DNA of 64,000 bases, taken from Narcine bancroftii. Taxonomy: Eukaryota. A model generated the notes under the pieces. The model was not told the origin of the DNA. It saw only the letters and a list, made by a program, of their open reading frames with translations, and did not search any database. The stretch spans positions 304,916,001 to 304,980,000 of the forward strand of contig NC_091472.1 in NCBI RefSeq assembly GCF_036971445.1, read 5' to 3'. Made by a program: the position numbers and the translations under genes. Positions 2,962 to 48,757 of the stretch are shown here, in pieces (the stretch's first letter is position 1; every line of letters starts with the position of its first letter).

Positions 2962-5339
2962 TTGCGCAGACATCACTAGCCAATAACGGCGCATGATAAA
3001 TTATACCGAATGGTATTTTACAAACGGAAGATAACTGAAGGTGGGAGACATTAAGCAAAATATTCGGATTTATAAACAAAAAAATCTTGAAGTGGAAAGT
3101 TCCATGAAATGTATTGCAAAACTTCGCCACATGAGAACAAATGAGGCACTCCTTGAAGAGAGCGACCAATTCCACAGTGATAAATTTGTATTGCGTTACC
3201 GTGCTGGGTCATTTTCACGAGCGATATTGCACAAGTTGCAAAATCATGGGGTTTCCCCCCCCCCCCCCCCCACGTCTTAACAATATGTTCTGGATTCAGA
3301 TCAATTGAGCGATTTTTCGAAACGTGGAGATAAAATATCGAGAACTGATAGATAACACGTTTAGCCCCCAACGCTGACAGTAAATAAAGTTCGCTATTTC
3401 TTACGATATTTTTTTTTCCATTTTAACATTTTGTCATATTTTGCAAGGAATCCAATGTGAATAGGTTCAAATGGTAACCGCAAATGCGAGCAACAATGAT
3501 TTAGTGATTGAAAATGCAATGGTAACATTGATGCCCATCAGATATTATTTGCAACAGTGCAGACTCCGTGCGGCGAAACGCCGTACTGTTGTTATTTTAA
3601 TCCGCCGCGAATTTACAATCATGTTGATAACAAATTATTTAGTCCATATACCGAGAAAGCTTGAAGTTGATTAACAGCAGAAAATTCTTAGGTATCACAG
3701 TTCCAAAAGCAAATGTAGTAATTAAAGAGAAACATCAGTCTCAAATGAAATATTTGTCCAATTTAAACGACTTCGTGTATATTTGTGATGTTAAAATAAG
3801 AAAGGCTATGTTTCTACCTTTTGAATATTTTGTTCTTTGAACTGTTATTTTCAAAACAAATGTTAATATATTTGAAAATCCGATTGATATTTTGAATGCG
3901 GAAGCTTTAAGTGAACTCTCTTCAGCTATTTTCTAAATAATGGCTTATTATTTTACTTCTTTATTGGAATCACGATTTACTATATGAGTAAATCATGAAA
4001 CATCATTCCGGTGTTTTATGTATATTTTTAAAATAAGCGTTGTTCATATTTCCCTCATTTTCTTTACCTAGGGCATTTCTGATTTGATATGGTGTCGTTT
4101 TCTTACATGGATTAATGCTATGTAAAAATTAAAACAACTCACTCTTCAACTATGTCGAAGTTTTATATTTCTTGTAAATTATTTCGACATATTTTAGTAC
4201 ATCAACGTTTATCATATTGAACTGTACATTGCTTGAATAAATGTTTCAGAATTCATTGCTATATTGCGTTTTATCTGTAAAATTCTAATAAAGGGAATAA
4301 ATATAGACTGTTTCATTTATAAACTGGAAGGAACTAAAAGGGAAAAGATGCTATTTGATGTTTTAATGACATATGTTTGATCGCCCGTGAGCTTTTCTGG
4401 TATTTTGTAAGCATAATTGAAGATACTCTAAATTTGCAAGCTATCCATTTAGCTGTGCTTTAAAACAAACTATGAACAGCATAATTTGTCAGAATTATTT
4501 CACTCTGCCATGTCCAGACGTGAGGAAAATGCCAAATTGCCTCCCATTCCACTCGAATACAATTCCGAGATTTCTTTAAAAACTGCTCCATTTCAAAATT
4601 CAATTTTCGCGTTTTGCAGATGAATTGAAAACATTGACACGTTTATCACATAAAAGCATTACCTAAACATTGCACCCAAATAATTACTGTAAATCAATAA
4701 AGTGGATTGTCCTGTGGATATCAGGAGCGATTACTTTACATTTGGCTTGCCAAAATTTTCACAGTGCAATCTCTTGCCGTTTGCACACTATAGACTTTCT
4801 TTCATTCCTTTGATAGAACTGAGACCCTTGGAAATATCACGAGCTCCGCACAGATGGCAAAAGGAAGTATTCATTGTAGCGTCCCTGTTGGCAACCGTGT
4901 GTAAATAATACAATACATGATGATATGGGTAATGTGTTCAAAGCAGTTAAAACCCAGCCTGGGATTTCCAACTCACTCCTTCAAGTAAAAGATGGGGTGA
5001 ATATTGAAGTTCAAGGAAGTGGAAGTGGGGTGGAGGCAATAAATCAGCTCCTAGTTTCAAAATAGACATATTAAGTGATGAAATTTTGAATTATGTGAGA
5101 TTCATTGCTTTCATATGAGCACTAACTTAGTAGGTGATAATGCTGTTGACCCTGCCATCTTTATTTACCACCTGCTTACAATTGCTAACCATGTTCCTGT
5201 GCCCTGTACTGTTGGTCAAACGTAGCAACAAATGTAACAGATTTGTTTCCTCATGTTACACGCAAAGTCTGACAATTCTCCGTTAAATTTGTTGGAACTT
5301 TGTGACATTAAAATAGATTTCTGCAGGGATGTTCACACT

Positions 5340-38557: not shown

Positions 38558-38984
38558 ATGAGTTCCTATTTTGTAAATCCATTTTACTCCAAGTACAAGC
38601 CAGGAGAAGCCCTCAGCCCCACTTACTACGACTGCCGGTTTCCACAGGACGTGACCAGCAGACACGCTGTGGTCTATGGTCCCAGCAGCGGCGCGAGCTT
38701 CCAGCACCCAGCTCAAGTTCAAGAATTTTACCATCATGGGACATCAGCACTTCCTAATACTGGCTTTCAGCAGAATCCTTGTGGAATTACGTGTCATGGT
38801 GACCCCTCTAAATTTTACGGATACGATAACTTACAAAGACAGCAAATTTTTACGACACAGCAAGAGGCCGATCTGGTACAATATCCTGACTGTAAATCGT
38901 CCGGCAGTAATATTGGCGAAGAACCAGAGCACTTAAATCAGAACTCGTCTCCTACTCAAATGTTTCCCTGGATGAGACCTCAAG
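38558..38984 (+). CDS. hoxd8: Hoxd8 exon 1
   Basis: [26 protein letters not shown], hexapeptide MFPWMRPQ; donor CAAG|GTTGGA at 38984/38985. Confidence 0.94.
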
Positions 38985-39199
38985 GTTGGATATATTAAAA
39001 TTAGCTTCCATCTCACGTTTTGCTGCTCAGTTCTGCCGCCAAGGTGTTTAATGCTATCTGTAGTAATCGCACTAATAGGGACTGTTTCTTTCTATAGCAT
39101 TGCCGAGCGAAGTAAAAGTCGTTGTGATTATTATTTCATTTTGTGCATTTTACCAAAACTTTATTGTTTCTTTTTGTGTGTGTTTGTCGTGTTGTTTAG

Positions 39200-39495
39200 C
39201 AGCGCCTGGTAGACGCAGAGGGAGACAAACTTACAGCCGATTCCAAACCCTGGAGCTGGAGAAGGAATTCTTGTTCAATCCGTATCTGACTCGAAAGCGA
39301 AGGATCGAAGTCTCTCATGCTCTGGGACTGACTGAGAGACAAGTGAAGATTTGGTTTCAAAACAGGAGAATGAAATGGAAAAAAGAAAACAATAAGGACA
39401 AATTCCCAACCTCTCGGAACGACGATGAGGGGGAAGAGGTCAAGAAAGAACAGGAAGAGCCTGAGCAGGACACAACAGAGAAAGAGACCAAGTAA
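39200..39495 (+). CDS. hoxd8: Hoxd8 exon 2, homeobox (tandem TAG-CAG acceptor; alternative start 39203)
   Basis: [70 protein letters not shown]; RFQ is typical of Hoxd8. Confidence 0.96.
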
Positions 39496-39883
39496 CTTTA
39501 CCCCTTTGGCCTCAGAGAGCAACGTCATTCAGTTTGTGCCAATTCCACTGTTATTCGTGTTGATCAGATTGAATCCTCCACCACACCGATGGTTAGTTTG
39601 GTGTAAAACAGTCCACCAGCTTTTGAAGTTCTTTCGAGCCTTAATTCCACATTCTTTCTAATGAGGTCTGTGTACATCATTTTAACCTTTTCGATCAAAT
39701 CCTGGCAAATACAGTATCAACTGTCATATAGAATTTTGCAGCTCCCTTCAAAAGTGGAAAGTTGCAATATCTCAGAAGTAATAGCCATTTGAATAAAGAT
39801 TTTATTGCTTTTTAATAGGAGGAAAATATAAATGAAATTGTGATTAATTTAGTTGGTTGATTTTATTTAGAATTGTGATTACA

Positions 39884-39904
39884 CCCAACAACATGAACTG
39901 CCTA
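39884..39904 (+). promoter_or_regulatory. miR-196 near-perfect complementary site in Hoxd8 3'UTR
   Basis: CCCAACAACATGAACTGCCTA versus reverse complement of miR-196a CCCAACAACATGAAACTACCTA: one missing A, one G:U. Confidence 0.88.
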
Positions 39905-40480
39905 ATAGAATGGATTATTTGGAATGTATTGCGAACACTCTTAATTAATGATAGAGAAAAAAAAACAGTGCACTTGCGATGTGTCTTAATTACTGTGCGT
40001 GTAAACTAATTGGTGGTGTATTGCGGCTGGAAATTCTCAACAATTACCTGTCTCCGAAACGCAGTTAATAAACATAAGCAAAAAAAAAAGGTATTCCGCA
40101 GCAATAGTCACTTTTTATGATGGTCGAATGTGATTAAATTAATAAATGTTGATTAAATTTAACTGTGTGATTGTTTCATTTTGTGGCCAGTCTCCCAAAG
40201 AAAATAAAAGTAACCCGTGCTTCACAGAGAAACATTATAGCTTGATTGAGACAAACAGCCGAGATCGCTAGAGTTCTGTGGCTGCTTCGAGGAGATTAAA
40301 TCGAATGTATTTGAGTTTTGTTTACTTCTGCGGTCACAAGGTGTCCGTCTGCGACACAACAAGGCTGTTCTGGTCGTTGGACAAAAAAAAATGAAGATGG
40401 TATGTTTTTATATGTAGTTATAAAAGTTAATGATGAGAATATTAGATTATCTATGCCTTAAGTTAAATGCCCTTCGAGTG

Positions 40481-40690
40481 GCCATTGGCTAGTTAAATCA
40501 CATGCCTGGCTCATGTGTGGCTAAAAGGACGCTTTAACAGTTAGTGTTTTGTGTAAAGCTGCGGTCAACTGTACACCTATATCAGCAAATCTCGTAAAGC
40601 CGACAATAAAATCCTAATACTACAAATCACTCGGCAAAGTGAAGACTTCGAGGTTCCAATTTACTCTTCTCCACTTTACAGGCTGGAGGC
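40481..40690 (+). pseudogene. Probable Hoxd7 remnant (promoter, 5'UTR and decayed start of exon 1)
   Basis: CATTGG-9nt-TCACATG; TATATCAGCAAATCTCGTAAAGCCGACAATAAAA and CTACAAATCACTCGGCAAA resemble the Hoxb7/Hoxa7 5'UTR as recalled; AAGACTTC at the ATGAGTTC position; NLLFSTLQAG versus Hox7 NALFSKYTAG; syntenic slot of Hox7. Confidence 0.7.
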
Positions 40691-41683
40691 GCCGACAGAA
40701 TCTACAGTTGTCGAATAACCTTCCATTTTCCCCATTAGACTTTGCATAAGCAACGATCAACTTTAACAGAATCAGCGATCAAGCTCCATATAAATCCTTA
40801 GAAAAGGAATGGACAATTTTTGATGTCCACATTGATGTACAAATTACTATGTCATGGGAAGGCTGAACAAAACGATAAACAGGAAATGGTGCTGAGGAGG
40901 GGTAGGATTAACAGACCAATGTTAGGTAACAACTAAATACATTTACACGTTATTAACAGCAGATACTAGAATCCACTGTGATATTGCAGTGATGTTCAGA
41001 CATGTGTAATCCAATGAACTGATTCAATGCATAATTGGGCGTCATGTCTCACAATTTCCTAATTCTGCCAGGCACGGTTGCCAAATTCACTATTTCAAAA
41101 TGAGAATTCATAAGAAAACTTTGCTGCAGCATTATTTATATATATTCAATGTTTTTTTTTAAACTAGCTTCATTTTATGTTAAATACATTTGATCTAATT
41201 CAAACAATAGCAGTGTGGTTGGTGCCAGTTAACCCAGCAAACAAACGATTTTATTTAAAAAATGTCACTTTCGTAATTGCCTTCTCGAATACGAAATGTT
41301 ATTTGTACAATTTTAAAGGACCTTATTCAACACTTATTCGGACATTCTAATTACATTTCCCAAATAGTGTGAACACTCGAGCTACCCCAATAGTGTTTCA
41401 GATATAACCCTCCTTTCGGAAAGAATCTAGACAATCACCAAATTCCAAACCACATAATGAAATCATTATTTTGCATTTGTTGGTTTTATACATTTGTGTC
41501 TCATTTATTGGTCTTCGCTCTATTAGAAGCTCCGACGGGTTGTACAATGGCACTAGATCGGGATCTCGTCGCGATCTTATAAGCTGATAGAAATCTTACT
41601 GGAGGAATAAATGATGAAAACGACCAACAGTTTTAAGGAGAAGGTAGAGCCTGCAGGGACTGCGAGTTTTACATGTGTGTGTG

Positions 41684-41829
41684 NNNNNNNNNNNNNNNNN
41701 NNNNNNNNNNNNNNNNNNNNNNNNNNNNNNNNNNNNNNNNNNNNNNNNNNNNNNNNNNNNNNNNNNNNNNNNNNNNNNNNNNNNNNNNNNNNNNNNNNNN
41801 NNNNNNNNNNNNNNNNNNNNNNNNNNNNN
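41684..41829. other. Assembly gap following a (TG)n start
   Basis: Run of N. Confidence 0.99.
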
Positions 41830-43057
41830 TCCGATATTTAGACATGAATTAAAACAAACCTCTGTAAATCCGTGCAAATGATCCTTTTGGTTCTTCAACC
41901 CATCATTATTTTTTAAATGGGTAATTTGCAGAAAATATTCCAGCACATTCTGCCCACAGCCCAACATCCACATCCCACGCCAGAAAAAGGGGTTTTTTTT
42001 GGGAATAAGAGGTAATAGAATTTGAAAATTTTAACATTTTAATGTCGCATCGCTGCTCTTGTGTTACGTTTAGTTTCCAGAGGACTTTTGTATATTTTCT
42101 CCATAGAATTGTTTTTAACCATTGGCCCAGAGACGATTAGATTATTGACCTTTTACATATCAAACCCCACGGACCATAGACGGCAAGGAAAGGATGGCAA
42201 ATACCAACCGATGTCTGCTTCTCCCCGAACTAATTTGTTGCGTAACTTTGGTGCATGAATTTGCTGCCGAGCTCTGATGCCTGTAGCAAGGAGAACAATT
42301 GCGGAACAAACATTTTACACCTTTCATGAGCGCTAAATATTTATTTATCGAGAGCGCAGCTATATTTAATGAAATTACTTGTGAAATTGTGAATGCCTTT
42401 TGTTTTCTCTCCAGCACTGAAAACAGGAGGGGCAGAATGAAATAGGGGGGCTTAAATGTAATCAGATCATTTCACACGCTGAGAACCCACCTCCCCTGTC
42501 TCCGTTCTCACCTGTGCAGAACGCACAATGTCACATGAATCATAAGTTGTCACACAGTTTGCATTTCAGGGTTTTGTTTGAATGAAGGCAGGCGCCGTGC
42601 ATGCAGATTGAACTCAGTGGCCAAACGTGCTTCGTGTTCGCTTGTTTCCTACTCTTAGCTCGGTCAAATCAAAGGGATCGGAAAGCATGTCAAAGCAAAA
42701 TGGGAAGCCGCCTGATTCATAATTACCAACATTGGGAAATATGAATTAAACCTGCAGGAGTTGTCTACGAAAGAAACATTAGACTTGACGCATTGAAAAC
42801 CTGAACTAAAAGTGTCCTGGGTTATCGAATTGCAGGGGCTGGTGGTGTGAACTACCCACTGTCGTGAGGGTTATTTCCCTTCGTGTTTACGCGGTGGCTG
42901 CACTTCCGCCTCTGTAGTTGGTTAGAATGTTTGTTACAATGTATGTTATACTGTATAACAAATAGCTGTAGCCAAGAACTCGTTAAAGGAAACATGGCGC
43001 TTGCAAGCGGTACTTGCGAAATCCGCAAGGAATTGCTGCGAATTCTTTTTTGTTTGA

Positions 43058-43533
43058 AGTAAATTTACAACTTTGTAATGGACCCTTTTACGAGGGGGTC
43101 GGCGCTCCCATTGGCTACTTTTGGTCATGTGAATCAAGCAACTGCGTTCATGGCCTTTTCATGATTTCCCTTGTGAATATTTCACTGCATTCCGCTGCTA
43201 ACTCGTCTCAACCCGTCTTTTCTGTCGGTATCTCTCCTTGGCTGCTTTTGTCGTGGGTCTTTGGCGCCAGCTGCTTGGGGGGAAAAGAGAGACTTTCCGC
43301 TCTCCTCCCGGTGTTCAACCCTTTACTGTTGAACTATGAGGAAGTCATTCGACACATGCTGGGATTCGGCAATCTGATCTCCCTCGCAGACCTGTGACGT
43401 CTGCTTCCAGTCTCTCCTTCACCCTTCAGTTCGCTTTGCCTATTTTAAGTTATTTTGATAGTTGAAACGGTACAAATGGAATACAAAATCCACACGATTC
43501 CTACTGGGGGGAGGCGCCATGAAACAGGTAAGT
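43058..43533 (+). promoter_or_regulatory. Orphan Hox-type promoter and putative first exon between Hoxd8 and Hoxd5
   Basis: TAAATTTACAAC and TTTTACGA Hox sites; CATTGG (43109) plus TCATGTG (43125); perfect donor CAG|GTAAGT at 43527/43528. Confidence 0.6.
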
Positions 43534-46450
43534 CCCTTTGCTCTTGTCCGTTGGGCTATCGCAGATAGATGTGTTGTAATGGGAAGCCACGACGTTGTAT
43601 TCACTGGTTGAGTTCGAGGCAGCTGGTTGTCAGGTCGAAGGCAAGACTGGTTTTCAAATGGCACTTTCTAACGAGGTCCCGGTGGTCGATTCAGTATAAA
43701 CGGGGGCCGAGCAGCAGATTAATTAAATATTTATTTTCGGCCACGAAACGGGGAGTCGTGATCCATGCCTATCTTTCTGATGACAGCCTTGCTACAAGAC
43801 GGCTGACATTTGCATCGAACATCTCCTGTGGCGATTAATCAAGTTGTCTAGTTCATTCAAGACTTTTTGATTTCGTTACTTTTATTAGCGATGGTTGTTG
43901 TTTGCCTGCTGACCTACTCCAGTGGTTGTTAGCCTCAGTCTATTTTTGCTGATCTGTGACTTTCCATGGTATTTTCTAGCTTGCAGCCAAGTGTATGAAG
44001 GTTGGACACTCTCTGATGTAAAACTGGAGCAATGAGTGATGGATTTGTGTTAATGATCCGAATAAGTCCGCGCGGAAATCACTGGGTTTGGAAATATCAA
44101 GAGCTATGGGATTTTGGAACAAACGTTTCGTTATCATTTTAATAATATTTCACCACGTGATAGCAGTGCGCAAATGAGGAGAACTCGACGATCATTTTCC
44201 TGCGGTCAACATCAGACACGCTTTCAATATGTTAATGACGAGAGTCATGGCTATTTATACTTGATTTGTCAGTGCAAATAATTTAAGTCTGTTCATTTGG
44301 TGAAGTGCAATGCCAATTTGCGATTGTTCATCTAGTTGTGTTGTATTTAAGAAAAGAACTCTTCAATTTGTAAAATATTTCTAAGCAGTTCCAACGTCAT
44401 GTTCATGACTTCACAATGCAGCGCATGAAATCAAAACAGCGCTATTTTTTAATATTAATTATTAGTTGAAACTGTCTGCTCGGGAAATAACATAGGGCCA
44501 CAGTGATTGTTAGCAGTAAAGTAACGCGGGTATTTCTGTTCTTATTTCTCAGCCAGTTGTCTGTATTTCCGCTGATGGAATATTCGGAAAGAATTGTTCT
44601 TTATTTTGTGTCAGAGATGAAGGAAGAATTTTCTAGCTGCATGCACTTGAAAGTCAATATTATTCGACTATGAACCAATTCATCTTGCTGACACCAAATT
44701 ATTTCTAGGGAACGAATAAAAAAATAATATATCAACATGACCCATGTATAATTAGATAGATATTAATTTACCGATGGAAACTTGTGTCTGTTTGCAAATG
44801 TTAAATTATTAAATGCTCCTTTTCTATCTGTATCTATTGGACAGACGGACAGGGACATTGTGAAACGAAACGCTGGCCACTAAAAAAAACTTAGATCACA
44901 GCATATTGCAGGAACCAAATAAGCATTTAAACTAATGAGCCCATTTTAAATTACAAAATAAATACGTAAATACATATGATCGACTTAAGTCATATCTCAC
45001 AAGAACAAAATGTCAGGATGGCGACCCATATAGTGCACAATATTTAATATTTTGCTTTATGGAGAAAGCAATTTTATTTGCGCCTCAATTGTCAAACAGT
45101 GGTTGGCTTTAATAATTTCCTACAACGTGTTTTCCACACAATGTTCGCCACAGGAAAACATTCTCGTGCAACCTCTCTTAATTAAGACCCTGTCCCTCGT
45201 TTTGAAAAGTGAACAAATTAAATATTAGCTTAAATTTCTTTCTGGTGAAACTAAATCTGTTTAGCATCGAATAAACGCTGTCCATTTTTAGAATTGCGTT
45301 AAAAAAAAAACCTACCTGATGTCTCCTCAAAATTTTCATCTTAATGGAAATTATTTGGTTAAAAATCCGAACAAAAATGTAAATCGTCATTATAAATTTA
45401 ATTCAGAAGTACATATTTCCAAATTACGCCTCCACAGACTATTTTAAGATGGGGCTGTTTATGTAAGGTTACCCCACCGAAAAGTTCTGAAATTTCTAAA
45501 TGGTAAATATCGCTATCTCTGAGTGCGTCTGCTATTAGGGCCAATATCCAGAATTCTATTTGGAAGCTTAAATGTGAAGAATTTTGCTCACTATTGTACC
45601 TTCAATAGTAGAGCGACAACGTTCAATGGCAATAATCAATTTCAATGAAATTGCAAAAATTCTCTTTTAATTGAAATACTTTCGGTTAACATCTGTGACA
45701 AAAGGTCATTTGACTTTCAACAACGTTCACCGCATTTTAATTCATCGTGCCTATTTACATTTAAAAATAACATATACTTATAGACATAAATAACTCCAAA
45801 TCCGAATCACAAATATGTAATCTCGTACATAACGGTGATTAATCCACTGCTATCGCAGAAATTTGCTCACTCTTTACAGGACTGACAAACGAAATTCCAG
45901 ATCGCATCTTCTCCGAAATTTATGACAATGGCCAACCCGCTGCAAAACGAAAAATCAACAAAACATTTAGTATGTCGGGCCCGAACAGGTTTCTTTTTTC
46001 CAACAGTATGAACGCGACTTACTTATTCAACTGTTTCAAATATTGTAGAGAGCTGGACAATCAGTTTGCATGGCTTTCCCATCTCAAGTTATCTATTTCC
46101 ATATTTATTTACTGTCGTACTTAGGCTTAGAACTCCTTCAATCTAGGCCCAAATGGTACTTCGGGGAAACTATCATCCTGCAAACATTCTAATAATCGGA
46201 GATCTGTGCAAACCTACAGTACAATGGACAGTGTGGCCAGATCCCGATTGTGAATGGTTTTGCAAGATTTTAGGTCCATTTTCTAATGTACCCATTGAAA
46301 TGTATCAGGCAAATGAACATAAACAACTCAATTTCCCAACTCTGGGACGATCCTGTAAAGACTGCAATTATATTTCCTCACAACCTAGAAATCAAATACC
46401 ATTTCATCCTAAAATTTGCACGTGTGTTTGAGTTTGCGTGTGTGTGCGCT

Positions 46451-46504
46451 GGAGAGAGGGGGGGGGGGGGGGGAGAGAAAGAGAGAGAGGGAGAGGGAGG
46501 GAGT
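46451..46504. repeat. Polypurine G/GA tract
   Basis: GGAGAGAG, poly-G, then AG/GGAG repeats. Confidence 0.85.
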
Positions 46505-48072
46505 GGTATTCAGTAGCCAAATAATTTAGTAATGCTATTTCTCTGCGCCCTCATTCATTTACATACGCAGAGCAGGGAGCGCCCAGCAACAGAGAGAGCA
46601 ACAGATAACTCAGATCCAAATGTGTTAAATATTACTGCTACAAAGGACGGATCTTTGCAAATTATCCAGACAATGCAGTTAGCGTTTTGACATCGTTTCA
46701 CTGCCTTGATTATTTCTTATGTTCGTGATCAGAATCAACCCTTTAAAATTCGCCAATGAATCAAACAGGAAGAAACAAACCTTGTTTCAAATCATTATAT
46801 TTATGGATGTCGAAGTCTCCCTGCATATGATTCGATGCGTCTAAATTCGAGTTGCTGTACTCTGACACGATCCCGCCGGAGACAGACGGCGAGACCGAAC
46901 GTGCAGCCCTTGCAATCTGCGCCATTCGTTCCCCACATTTGTGCATATCGGTTTTGTAATGACCTCGGTGTACATATTGATCAGATCTTGCAACAGGTCA
47001 AATTGAAATATTCTGATCGGCTAGATCGTAAATGCGGGGAACGCACCCGTGCAGTTGAATCTCACAATGGAGAAGAAGCGGGTTTCTGCTGAAGTTCTCG
47101 GTTATTGCTTCTGTGGTGACTGGCCCCGACTTAACTGGCCGTGAAAGAAAATAATTGTAATTCTTTATTTATTAACTCAATGGCCGATGAAAATAGAGAG
47201 CAAATGCTAATCCAGAATCCTAACTTAAATGCGCAAAAGAGAGTAAAAAGGCGGATCACGTGATTGTAAATGAAACTAGAACTACAAACTTTGTGAAGCC
47301 GTTTCTCTGTAAAACTATATGACCAGTGAATCAATAGGCTTAGTTCATAACACATCACGAAAATAACACCGTAGTCTTTGTACATTGTGTTTAAACGTGC
47401 AATGAATATAAATCTGATATTGGATAGAGGTTTTTTAACCGAACAAAATATTTCCTTGGCGTCTTAACAAATTCTAAACGTCTGGAGTAAAGATTACAAT
47501 AAGAGTTGCGAAGTTGTAATAATTATTGGGAATATGTAGGATTTTCCCCCTATCGGGCTATGTTTAAGCACCACGTTTTGGGATTAAATATGAGATAAAA
47601 ACGTGGTGATTCACCACCTTTATTCCAATACACAATATATGATTTGTTCCACAAAACGTGTTGAATTATCTGGACGCAATTTATATTATTGGAATGATCG
47701 CATGAAATGTTAAGACCCGCACACTTTTCTAATACATCACCACAGAGAATAATTGTGATGTTCAATGAATGCACGCACTGGTTTTCTGTTGATATAAACG
47801 TTTGGCGGGTGTTCTGTACGTCCTCCAATGTATCATTGATAAACTTCATCAAAACAGAACTGTTCATCGTTTATATCCTAAACCGTGAACCATTTGAAAA
47901 ACTGAAACCATTCCCGAAAAAATTCATCCTTTGAACATTAACGTCTTTCAATTTGGCTTGCAGAATTGAGCCGGACTCTCTTCTTGTTTGACAGAAGGAG
48001 GCGCTGTAGGACAAGGCTCGCTAAATCACAGCACGAATTCTCACTGCATGAATTACCCCTAGGGTCAGGCAC

Positions 48073-48249
48073 AAGAATTTACGACTGGTCAACAAAAGCA
48101 CGTGATCTAAACTTGCGTCCCATATTTGGTTGCATACGTAGGAGGCAGAGAAATGACATGTGCCTTTTATTTCCATATTTCATTATATATCGCGCGTTCT
48201 GGTGGCGAATAAACGTCTAAGAACCACAAATCAATCCCCTAAAAGGCAG
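48073..48249 (+). promoter_or_regulatory. Conserved Hox5 proximal promoter/5'UTR
   Basis: GAATTTACGAC...AAAAGCACGTGAT...CCCATATTTGG...TACGTAGGAGG...CCACAAATCAA, the same block order as the Hoxa5/b5 leader as recalled. Confidence 0.75.
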
Positions 48250-48757
48250 ATGAGTTCCTACTTTTTCAACTCCTTCCCAGGTCGCTACCAAAATGGCCAC
48301 GATTATCAGTTGCAGAGTTATGGGAATGCCTCGTCTGTGGGAGAGCATTTTAGGGAGTCGACGATGCTCTCCGCCAGGTATGGCTATGATTACACTGGGA
48401 TAGACCTCAGCATGACTCGTTCCAACTCAAATCTTCGTGGAGATAATGAAAGGTCTACTAACTACACGCAGACAACCAGTAGCACCTTCCACAGTTCTTC
48501 TGGTGCGAGAACTAAGTCTCCTGATCCTGCATTCTGCCCAGGATCTTTAATAAGCCCATCAGACAGTTCCATTAAAACGGGGACGACTATCACAGAGCCA
48601 AGTCACTCATACCGCGGTGGTCAGGATGCATCACCAGTCACCGATGAGCATCTTAAAGCAACGAACAGCCCCAAACCTGAAAGTGAGCAGCTAGACAAGG
48701 ACTCAGCACAGCAGATGCAGATATACCCATGGATGAAAAAGCTTCACCTCAGTCAAG
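48250..48757 (+). CDS. hoxd5: Hoxd5 exon 1
   Basis: [44 protein letters not shown] Hox5 motifs; donor CAAG|GTATGC at 48757/48758. Confidence 0.93.

Follow-up and report, generated by a model that had tools for sequence, protein, structure and literature searches.

What has become of the group-7 gene of the HoxD cluster? We know of no jawed vertebrate with an intact Hoxd7, and slot D7 has, to our knowledge, no living orthologue. The window considered here, 64,000 nucleotides of Narcine bancroftii contig NC_091472.1 (positions 304,916,001 to 304,980,000, forward strand), contains the HoxD cluster. An earlier inspection made without database searches (the sequence-only reading) had proposed a fossil Hoxd7 about 1 kb after the Hoxd8 stop, with promoter and 5' untranslated region retained and the coding start decayed. 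Our analysis agrees with that identity: the element is very probably a unitary Hoxd7 pseudogene. The retained motifs and the lost start also stood, but the description understated what is left, since most of exon 1 can still be read. The evidence for identity is a group-7-specific exon-1 remnant at 40697-40921, downstream of the segment described before, and the remnant is larger than that description had it. Taken as a whole, a dead Hoxd7 with a regulatory core still selected appears, with some reserve, to be the best explanation of the locus. The parts of the element are as follows.

40483..40488, plus strand: inverted CCAAT box CATTGG of the NF-Y type, in a module common to the Hoxd10, d9 and d4 promoters (5 occurrences vs. 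0.16 in shuffles)
40498..40517, plus strand: two E-boxes seen in the sequence, TCACATG at 40498-40504 and CATGTG at 40512-40517
40545..40641, plus strand: former 5' leader, with TATATC at 40578-40583, CTCGTAAA at 40591-40598 and CTACAAATCA at 40620-40629
40642..40657, plus strand: destroyed start region, with AAG at the presumed ATG and about 5 nucleotides short of Hox7 codons 1-7
40658..40687, plus strand: probable remnant of Hox7 codons 8-17 (NLLFSTLQAG vs. NALFSKYTAG), alone not paralogue-specific
40688..40696, plus strand: junction where about 38 codons (some 114 nucleotides) have gone in frame, relative to gar HoxB7; from N8 to the first aligned residue there are 51 codons in gar and 13 here
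40697..40921, plus strand: probable remains of codons 59-133 of Hox7 exon 1, aligning with gar and bowfin HoxB7 without gaps

The exon-1 remnant continues the reading frame of the NLLFSTLQAG peptide up to 40921. Anchored at the hexapeptide methionine at 40919, its 75 codons align without gaps to residues 59-133 of gar HoxB7 with 18 identities (24%) and a BLOSUM score of +55, against a mean of -84 and a standard deviation of 17 (z about 8). This score ranks first of 102,186 non-coding positions. Bowfin HoxB7 also has 18 identities and rank 1, horn shark HoxB7 has rank 3 and elephant shark HoxB7 rank 4; all six Hox6 and Hox8 proteins are at background in the same comparison. When a sliding scan was run free of the anchor, three of the top four gar HoxB7 matches fell on the same diagonal (z 7.1, 6.2 and 5.7); the best matches of other profiles had z 4.6-6.0.

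Profile hidden Markov models (HMMs) gave a similar picture. With an exon-1 model built from 13 slowly evolving HoxB7 proteins, the candidate frame comes first (11.6 bits, E-value 0.046 over 1,955 frames), and none of the 1,952 non-coding frames scores as high (maximum 6.8 bits). The Hox6, Hox8, Hoxd5 and Hoxd4 profiles place it at background (509-1,208 of 1,952 frames). Models built by taxon were run at two settings over 978 frames, the HoxB7 groups being related to each other and so not independent tests. No frame was as high as the candidate for the coelacanth, lungfish and non-teleost model, for teleosts or for amphibians (0 and 0 in each case); 1 and 3 were for sauropsids, and 10 and 18 for chondrichthyans. 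For HoxB6, D8, B8 and C8, the four Hox6/Hox8 groups, 68-978 of the frames were as high, all at background. The coelacanth, lungfish and non-teleost model gives 12 bits, a value that none of 300 sequences reached in either of two shuffle sets. Leaving out the short peptide lowers it to 11 bits and barely alters the results by taxon. Compared with HoxB7, the exon-1 body is thus like group 7 and unlike groups 4, 5, 6 and 8, and the exon-1 similarity proper to a group 6 or group 8 gene was not found.

Several results weigh against this identification. Four of the eight HoxB7 proteins gave no ungapped score (ranks 1,466-24,539), for which codon gaps are the likely reason. The mammalian HoxB7 model is at background (191 and 201 of 978 frames). 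An early screen with 60-residue pieces and tblastn gave nothing significant, the best tblastn match having an E-value of 0.12 and lying in the same frame further on, and a back-translated exon-1 profile in nhmmer missed the site at E<20, while barely seeing the real Hoxd8 start (E 1.8). The comparison sequences for group 7 were HoxB7 proteins only. To the same side belong the rival registers of the short peptide and the missing homeobox, which are given below. One might instead suppose an ordinary conserved promoter or enhancer with a chance likeness to Hox7 coding sequence, the more so as many profiles were tried, early screens were negative, and the same promoter module recurs at 43109 with no coding remnant. 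Chance would have had to place the first-ranking of 102,186 positions at the site and in the frame predicted by the leader, with the HMM score quoted above and with specificity for group 7, and we regard this explanation as very improbable.

The start region itself is less specific. The ATG register at 40642-40644 is presumed by comparison with Hox leaders. HoxB7 of shark, ray and chimaera reads NALFSKYTAG, with which the candidate peptide shares 6 of 10 residues; in the comparison with the N-terminal motif MSSxYYxNALFSKY these 6/10 fall on residues 8-17, and Hox8 and Hox6 registers fit as well. The best-case nucleotide match to HoxB7 is 22/30, which 43 of 103,892 non-coding positions reach. 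HoxB8 (23/30, 20 positions) and HoxC8 (34 positions) are comparable, and an ungapped HoxB6 register at 40652 also gives 22/30 (74 positions), frame 40649 matching HoxB6 residues 2-11 without any deletion. The sequence-only reading had called the peptide Hox7; it is indeed above chance, but not Hox7-specific. A bony-fish HoxB7 start score (0/250 tiles) was not relied on, as it needs a Q missing in sharks, and the shark profile gives 23/250.

These registers raise the alternative of a Hoxd6 remnant, or of a tandem duplicate of Hoxd8 that has decayed, and the leader bears on the same question. Its start at about 40545 was inferred from the distance of about 60 nucleotides between CAAT box and transcription start in Hoxa9. 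GTGTAAA lies at 40551-40557, the TATATC block begins at 40578, and the TATATC..ACAAATCA arrangement is common to the candidate leader and the Hoxd5 leader. The segment 40604-40682 aligns to the leader and start of Hoxd5 in the window (score 35 vs. 20.5+-2.8, 0/300 shuffles). Six leaders were tried in all; Hoxd10 reached 3/300 shuffles, Hoxd4 15, and the remainder 58-145. With the Hoxd5 leader as query, the candidate ties with the real Hoxd8 start as the best non-self tile of 1,130. Comparison with the human HOXB7 leader quoted in the sequence-only reading was checkable over 10 nucleotides only: a published HOXB7 primer is identical over exactly 40620-40629, CTACAAATCA (PMC5352052, PMC4047917, PMC7732634). 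An N-extended echidna HoxB6 model, whose extension may be spliced, matches 40616-40636 at 19/21, and its two-block match occurs in 2/200 shuffles; the SRVL leader block that echidna HoxB6 shares with Hoxd5 is missing from the candidate (7/15). An N-extended HoxB7 was not found among the 51 named proteins listed, nor in a second set of proteins. The leader is of the group 5-7 type, with motifs common to these groups, and does not single out the group itself. The echidna match, the HoxB6 register without a deletion and the fit of the short peptide to HoxB8 and HoxC8 speak for Hoxd6 or Hoxd8, but on the long remnant Hox6 and Hox8 proteins and models stay at background, the Hoxd8 upstream region does not align (58/300 shuffles), and the absent SRVL block and the sharing of the leader motifs by groups 5-7 also tell against that attribution. 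It is largely refuted by the ungapped comparison, and we consider it most unlikely.

A Hoxd6 remnant was not found anywhere in the d8-d5 interval by exon-1 HMMs or the ungapped scan. Separately, 44451-44750, roughly the place in which a Hox6 gene may once have stood, is the top non-coding frame for the Hox8 exon-1 HMM (8.0 bits, 1,952 frames); its ungapped z of 5.3 is not above chance maxima, and Hox6 profiles have no match there. Among candidates rejected, a motif match in PMC11554307 proved to be a Hoxc10 primer. A phmmer search of 1.84 billion proteins with the 53-residue leader frame as query returned one weak match (E 4e-5, 32% identity, 7 stretches within a 2,783-residue protein), which was not used. 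A third TATATC..ACAAATCA pair, 50 nucleotides apart, occurs at 22766-22823 in AT-rich DNA between d11 and d10; no Hox-like frame follows, and it is probably due to chance.

The position of the element agrees with paralogy group 7. The window holds eight homeoboxes on the plus strand, and miR-10 at 56299-56370, which together mark it as a HoxD cluster. The labels d13, d12, d11, d10, d9, d5 and d4 are ones we assume from gene order and known motifs; d8 is not labelled in this way. Hoxd8 exon 1 has 98% identity to a cluster represented by sawfish, which places the source among the elasmobranchs. The presumed Hoxd7 start lies about 1.15 kb past the Hoxd8 stop and 7.6 kb ahead of the Hoxd5 ATG on the same strand, that is, 3' of group 8 and 5' of groups 6 and 5. 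The horn shark HoxD complement likewise jumps from d8 to d5, without d6 and d7 (PMC3509897). Around the element lie the following features.

38558..39495, plus strand: Hoxd8 coding span, the intact upstream neighbour; the stop ends at 39495
40925..40931, plus strand: donor-like G/GTAACA, phase 1, 6 nucleotides ahead of the intron register of Hox7 and perhaps coincidental
41684..41829, no strand: assembly gap of 146 N, which could hide part of the intron or of exon 2
43109..43131, plus strand: second CCAAT/E-box module, with no coding remnant; donor CAG/GTAAGT at 43527/43528

At this ancestral locus the gene carries the disabling lesions of a unitary pseudogene: the start codon is lost, about 5 and about 114 nucleotides are deleted, two stops interrupt exon 1 (40736-40738 and 40799-40801), and the hexapeptide region has decayed from RIYPWM to RINRPM (40904-40921). 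With no ATG, two stops, RINRPM in place of a YPWM hexapeptide and no homeobox exon found, it does not qualify as a functional Hox gene. Of the first eight listed ATGs past the presumed start, none opens a frame of more than 37 codons, so that any transcript would be non-coding. The intron register was taken from read-through HoxB7 models P0227 and P0174. Between d8 and d5 no homeobox was detected by nhmmer, Smith-Waterman or ungapped scan; 8/8 real homeoboxes were recovered, simulated recovery of a decayed homeobox was 23/40 at 65% identity and 4/40 at 56%, and the 146-N gap is unseen. A by-eye homeobox resemblance at 41540-41650 is not above background.

Is any part of the dead gene still in use? 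All letters and coordinates of the sequence-only reading (CATTGG, TCACATG, GTGTAAA, AAG, NLLFSTLQAG) are present as quoted. Its module about 1 kb past the Hoxd8 stop is there, CATTGG at 40483-40488 followed by 9 nucleotides and TCACATG at 40498-40504 (the stop ends at 39495), and so is the spacing shared with Hoxd4 (CATTGG-9-TCACATG) and Hoxd9 (TATTGG-9 on the plus and CATTGG-9 on the minus strand). In the Hoxd10 promoter CCAAT box and E-box are 8 nucleotides apart. The pattern ATTGG-N9/10-CAC[AG]TG occurs five times in the 64 kb, compared with a mean of 0.16 in 200 block shuffles; four of the five are the Hoxd10, Hoxd9 (both strands) and Hoxd4 promoters, and the fifth is the candidate. A relaxed pattern adds a sixth, at 43110. 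From the E-box to the presumed start the candidate has 143 nucleotides, and real genes of the window have 100-150. It thus has the form of this promoter class, an inverted CCAAT box and an E-box 8-9 nucleotides apart, 100-150 nucleotides before the start position. NF-Y/USF Hox promoters such as Hoxa9 have the same two adjacent motifs, with a CAAT box about 60 nucleotides upstream of the transcription start (PMC9456764); the candidate spacing is that of Hoxd9 and Hoxd4 in the window, but no intact open reading frame follows. Promoter activity of mouse Hoxa7 was lost only when its two E-boxes were mutated together (PMC9456764). As an observation apart, the Hoxd9 promoter (30897-30934) is symmetric, with a single E-box and a CCAAT box on either side at equal spacing on each strand.

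To estimate decay, the living Hoxd8 exon was mutated in silico and compared with gar HoxB8a, a calibration that assumes similar paralogue divergence. About 0.5 substitutions per site reproduce the identity and BLOSUM score of the candidate, and 0.7-0.8 its nucleotide score, giving about 0.5-0.8 for the coding part, a level that fits an ancient loss; neutral drift at an assumed rate near 1e-9 per year would correspond to several hundred million years. All 12 core promoter bases are intact at canonical spacing, for which P is 0.001-0.004 at 56-63% expected identity; for 26 intact motif bases, chosen post hoc, P is 3e-7 to 6e-6. Such preservation of the 12 core bases, despite the substitutions in the coding part, favours continued selection, and on balance we lean towards the view that selection still acts on the CCAAT/double-E-box core and on the leader motifs as DNA elements.

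The same pseudogene may instead be wholly inert, with promoter, leader and exon persisting only through slow evolution of the lineage. The site was noticed through its intact motifs, a selection bias that tells against retained function; most of exon 1 is still readable, which weakens the argument that a recognisable promoter implies function, as the dead exon itself survives with none. Any long transcripts could be supplied by the 43109 module. Chondrichthyans keep ancestral non-coding sequence, their Hox evolution is slow, and HoxA intergenic lengths of skate and horn shark are virtually identical (PMC2746220). The intact core bases, and with their post hoc caveat the 26 motif bases, speak in the other direction, so that complete inertness is possible but rather unlikely, and a dead gene with a live regulatory core is marginally our preferred choice.

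No net indel interrupts the 225 nucleotides of the exon-1 remnant (P 0.0001-0.08 at d 0.45-0.6, with one indel per 15-40 substitutions), which also counts against the interpretation given here. About 6 stops would be expected in its frame, and 2 are present (P 0.057); the remaining frames have 7 and 6. Either indels are very rare here, or the frame was open until late. The latter would fit a Hoxd7 that was not lost in the jawed-vertebrate stem but stayed an open, fast-evolving coding gene in cartilaginous fishes after their split from bony vertebrates and died later and independently, its promoter still firing. Such a late death would explain 75 codons in one frame with so few stops despite 24% identity; we consider it doubtful. 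If true, Hoxd7 would have to be added to the gene set of the ancestral gnathostome HoxD cluster, and a less damaged copy might survive in some living chondrichthyan.

For a dead Hoxd7 with a selected core, we propose that the gene outlived the vertebrate genome duplications and then lost its start codon, about 120 nucleotides of exon 1, the hexapeptide and seemingly the homeobox. The remnant would still be alignable because chondrichthyan Hox clusters are slow and have few indels. The core may act as a putative promoter or proximal enhancer bound by NF-Y and a basic helix-loop-helix factor of the USF type, together with CTCGTAAA, which looks like a posterior-Hox/Cdx-type site. It would feed neighbouring transcription or start a non-coding RNA, no Hox protein being possible. 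A structured non-coding RNA or a local repeat was not supported: the only Rfam match in the window is miR-10, the fold z is +0.79, and a repeat search of 37500-48500 found only a 27-nucleotide two-copy match at 78%.

The second module (43060-43135) has a TTTTACGAG site upstream and a strong splice donor 400 nucleotides later. It is likely to be a promoter of long spliced transcripts, and would be a better candidate than the Hoxd7 remnant for the long-transcript promoter of the interval. We take it to resemble the "H8/7-6 four-cluster sequence", reportedly a promoter that lies between groups 8 and 5 and has no gene of its own. Polycistronic Hoxc6/c5/c4 transcripts share an upstream promoter (PMC1831499). 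That case is likewise a gene-less promoter in the group 8-5 interval, a role that fits the 43109 module better, as the candidate carries a coding fossil.

Hox pseudogenes have been described for group 14 of cartilaginous fishes (PMC3509897), as psiHoxD12 in caecilians (PMC4470032) and for bichir HoxA7 (PMC1845163). Like the candidate, these are disabled genes left in their cluster slot, found by alignment to living relatives. Slot D7 differs in being revealed by paralogues only, its remnant consists of promoter and exon 1 and not of the homeobox, and its loss appears far older than those of D12 or A7. Like HoxB7 and HoxA7, the candidate lies 3' of group 8. It further shares with HoxB7 the collinear residues 8-17 and 59-133 of exon 1 and the 10-nucleotide leader motif of the HOXB7 primer, and with mouse Hoxa7 the pair of E-boxes (PMC9456764); in contrast to these genes it has a frameshift, a 38-codon loss and two stops, it lacks start codon and hexapeptide, and a homeobox was not found.

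No report of a Hoxd7 remnant was found in the literature searched, which was covered largely by title and did not include key Hox-footprinting papers. The promoter part may already figure among the paralogous conserved elements of Kim 2000, Prohaska 2004, Ravi 2009 or Matsunami 2010. Many matches to "Hoxd7" were sequence-alignment papers, presumably through the HOXD70 scoring matrix. The excerpts of PMC8293171, PMC8892498 and PMC3038165 hold nothing on the candidate element.

A group-7 gene in HoxD after the genome duplications has so far been inferred from the empty slot; the remnant would document it directly in sequence. A group-7 sequence from the fourth cluster could be used in testing the order of cluster duplication, and lesions common to several species can put a date on the loss of Hoxd7. 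The dead exon lies next to the promoter that once served it and gives an internal neutral control for an old question: does a cluster keep the regulatory elements of its lost Hox genes for the sake of adjacent genes? The same ungapped scan with paralogues could be applied to the empty slots A8, C7 and D6 of chondrichthyan genomes.

Some further observations concern the rest of the window. A match to residues 15-28 of the extension of the echidna HoxB6 model (P0172) lies at 4938-4979, in non-coding DNA between d13 and d12 (E 0.002, 0/200 shuffles); it may be due to chance, to an old repeat or to a paralogous element. The Hoxd8 ATG (38540-38558) directly follows an acceptor-like CACAG, and the upstream region has no CCAAT/E-box module, which suggests that the Hoxd8 leader may be spliced. 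Past the Hoxd8 stop, 39884-39905 looks like a near-perfect miR-196 target site, and AATAAA signals follow at 40067, 40141 and 40203.
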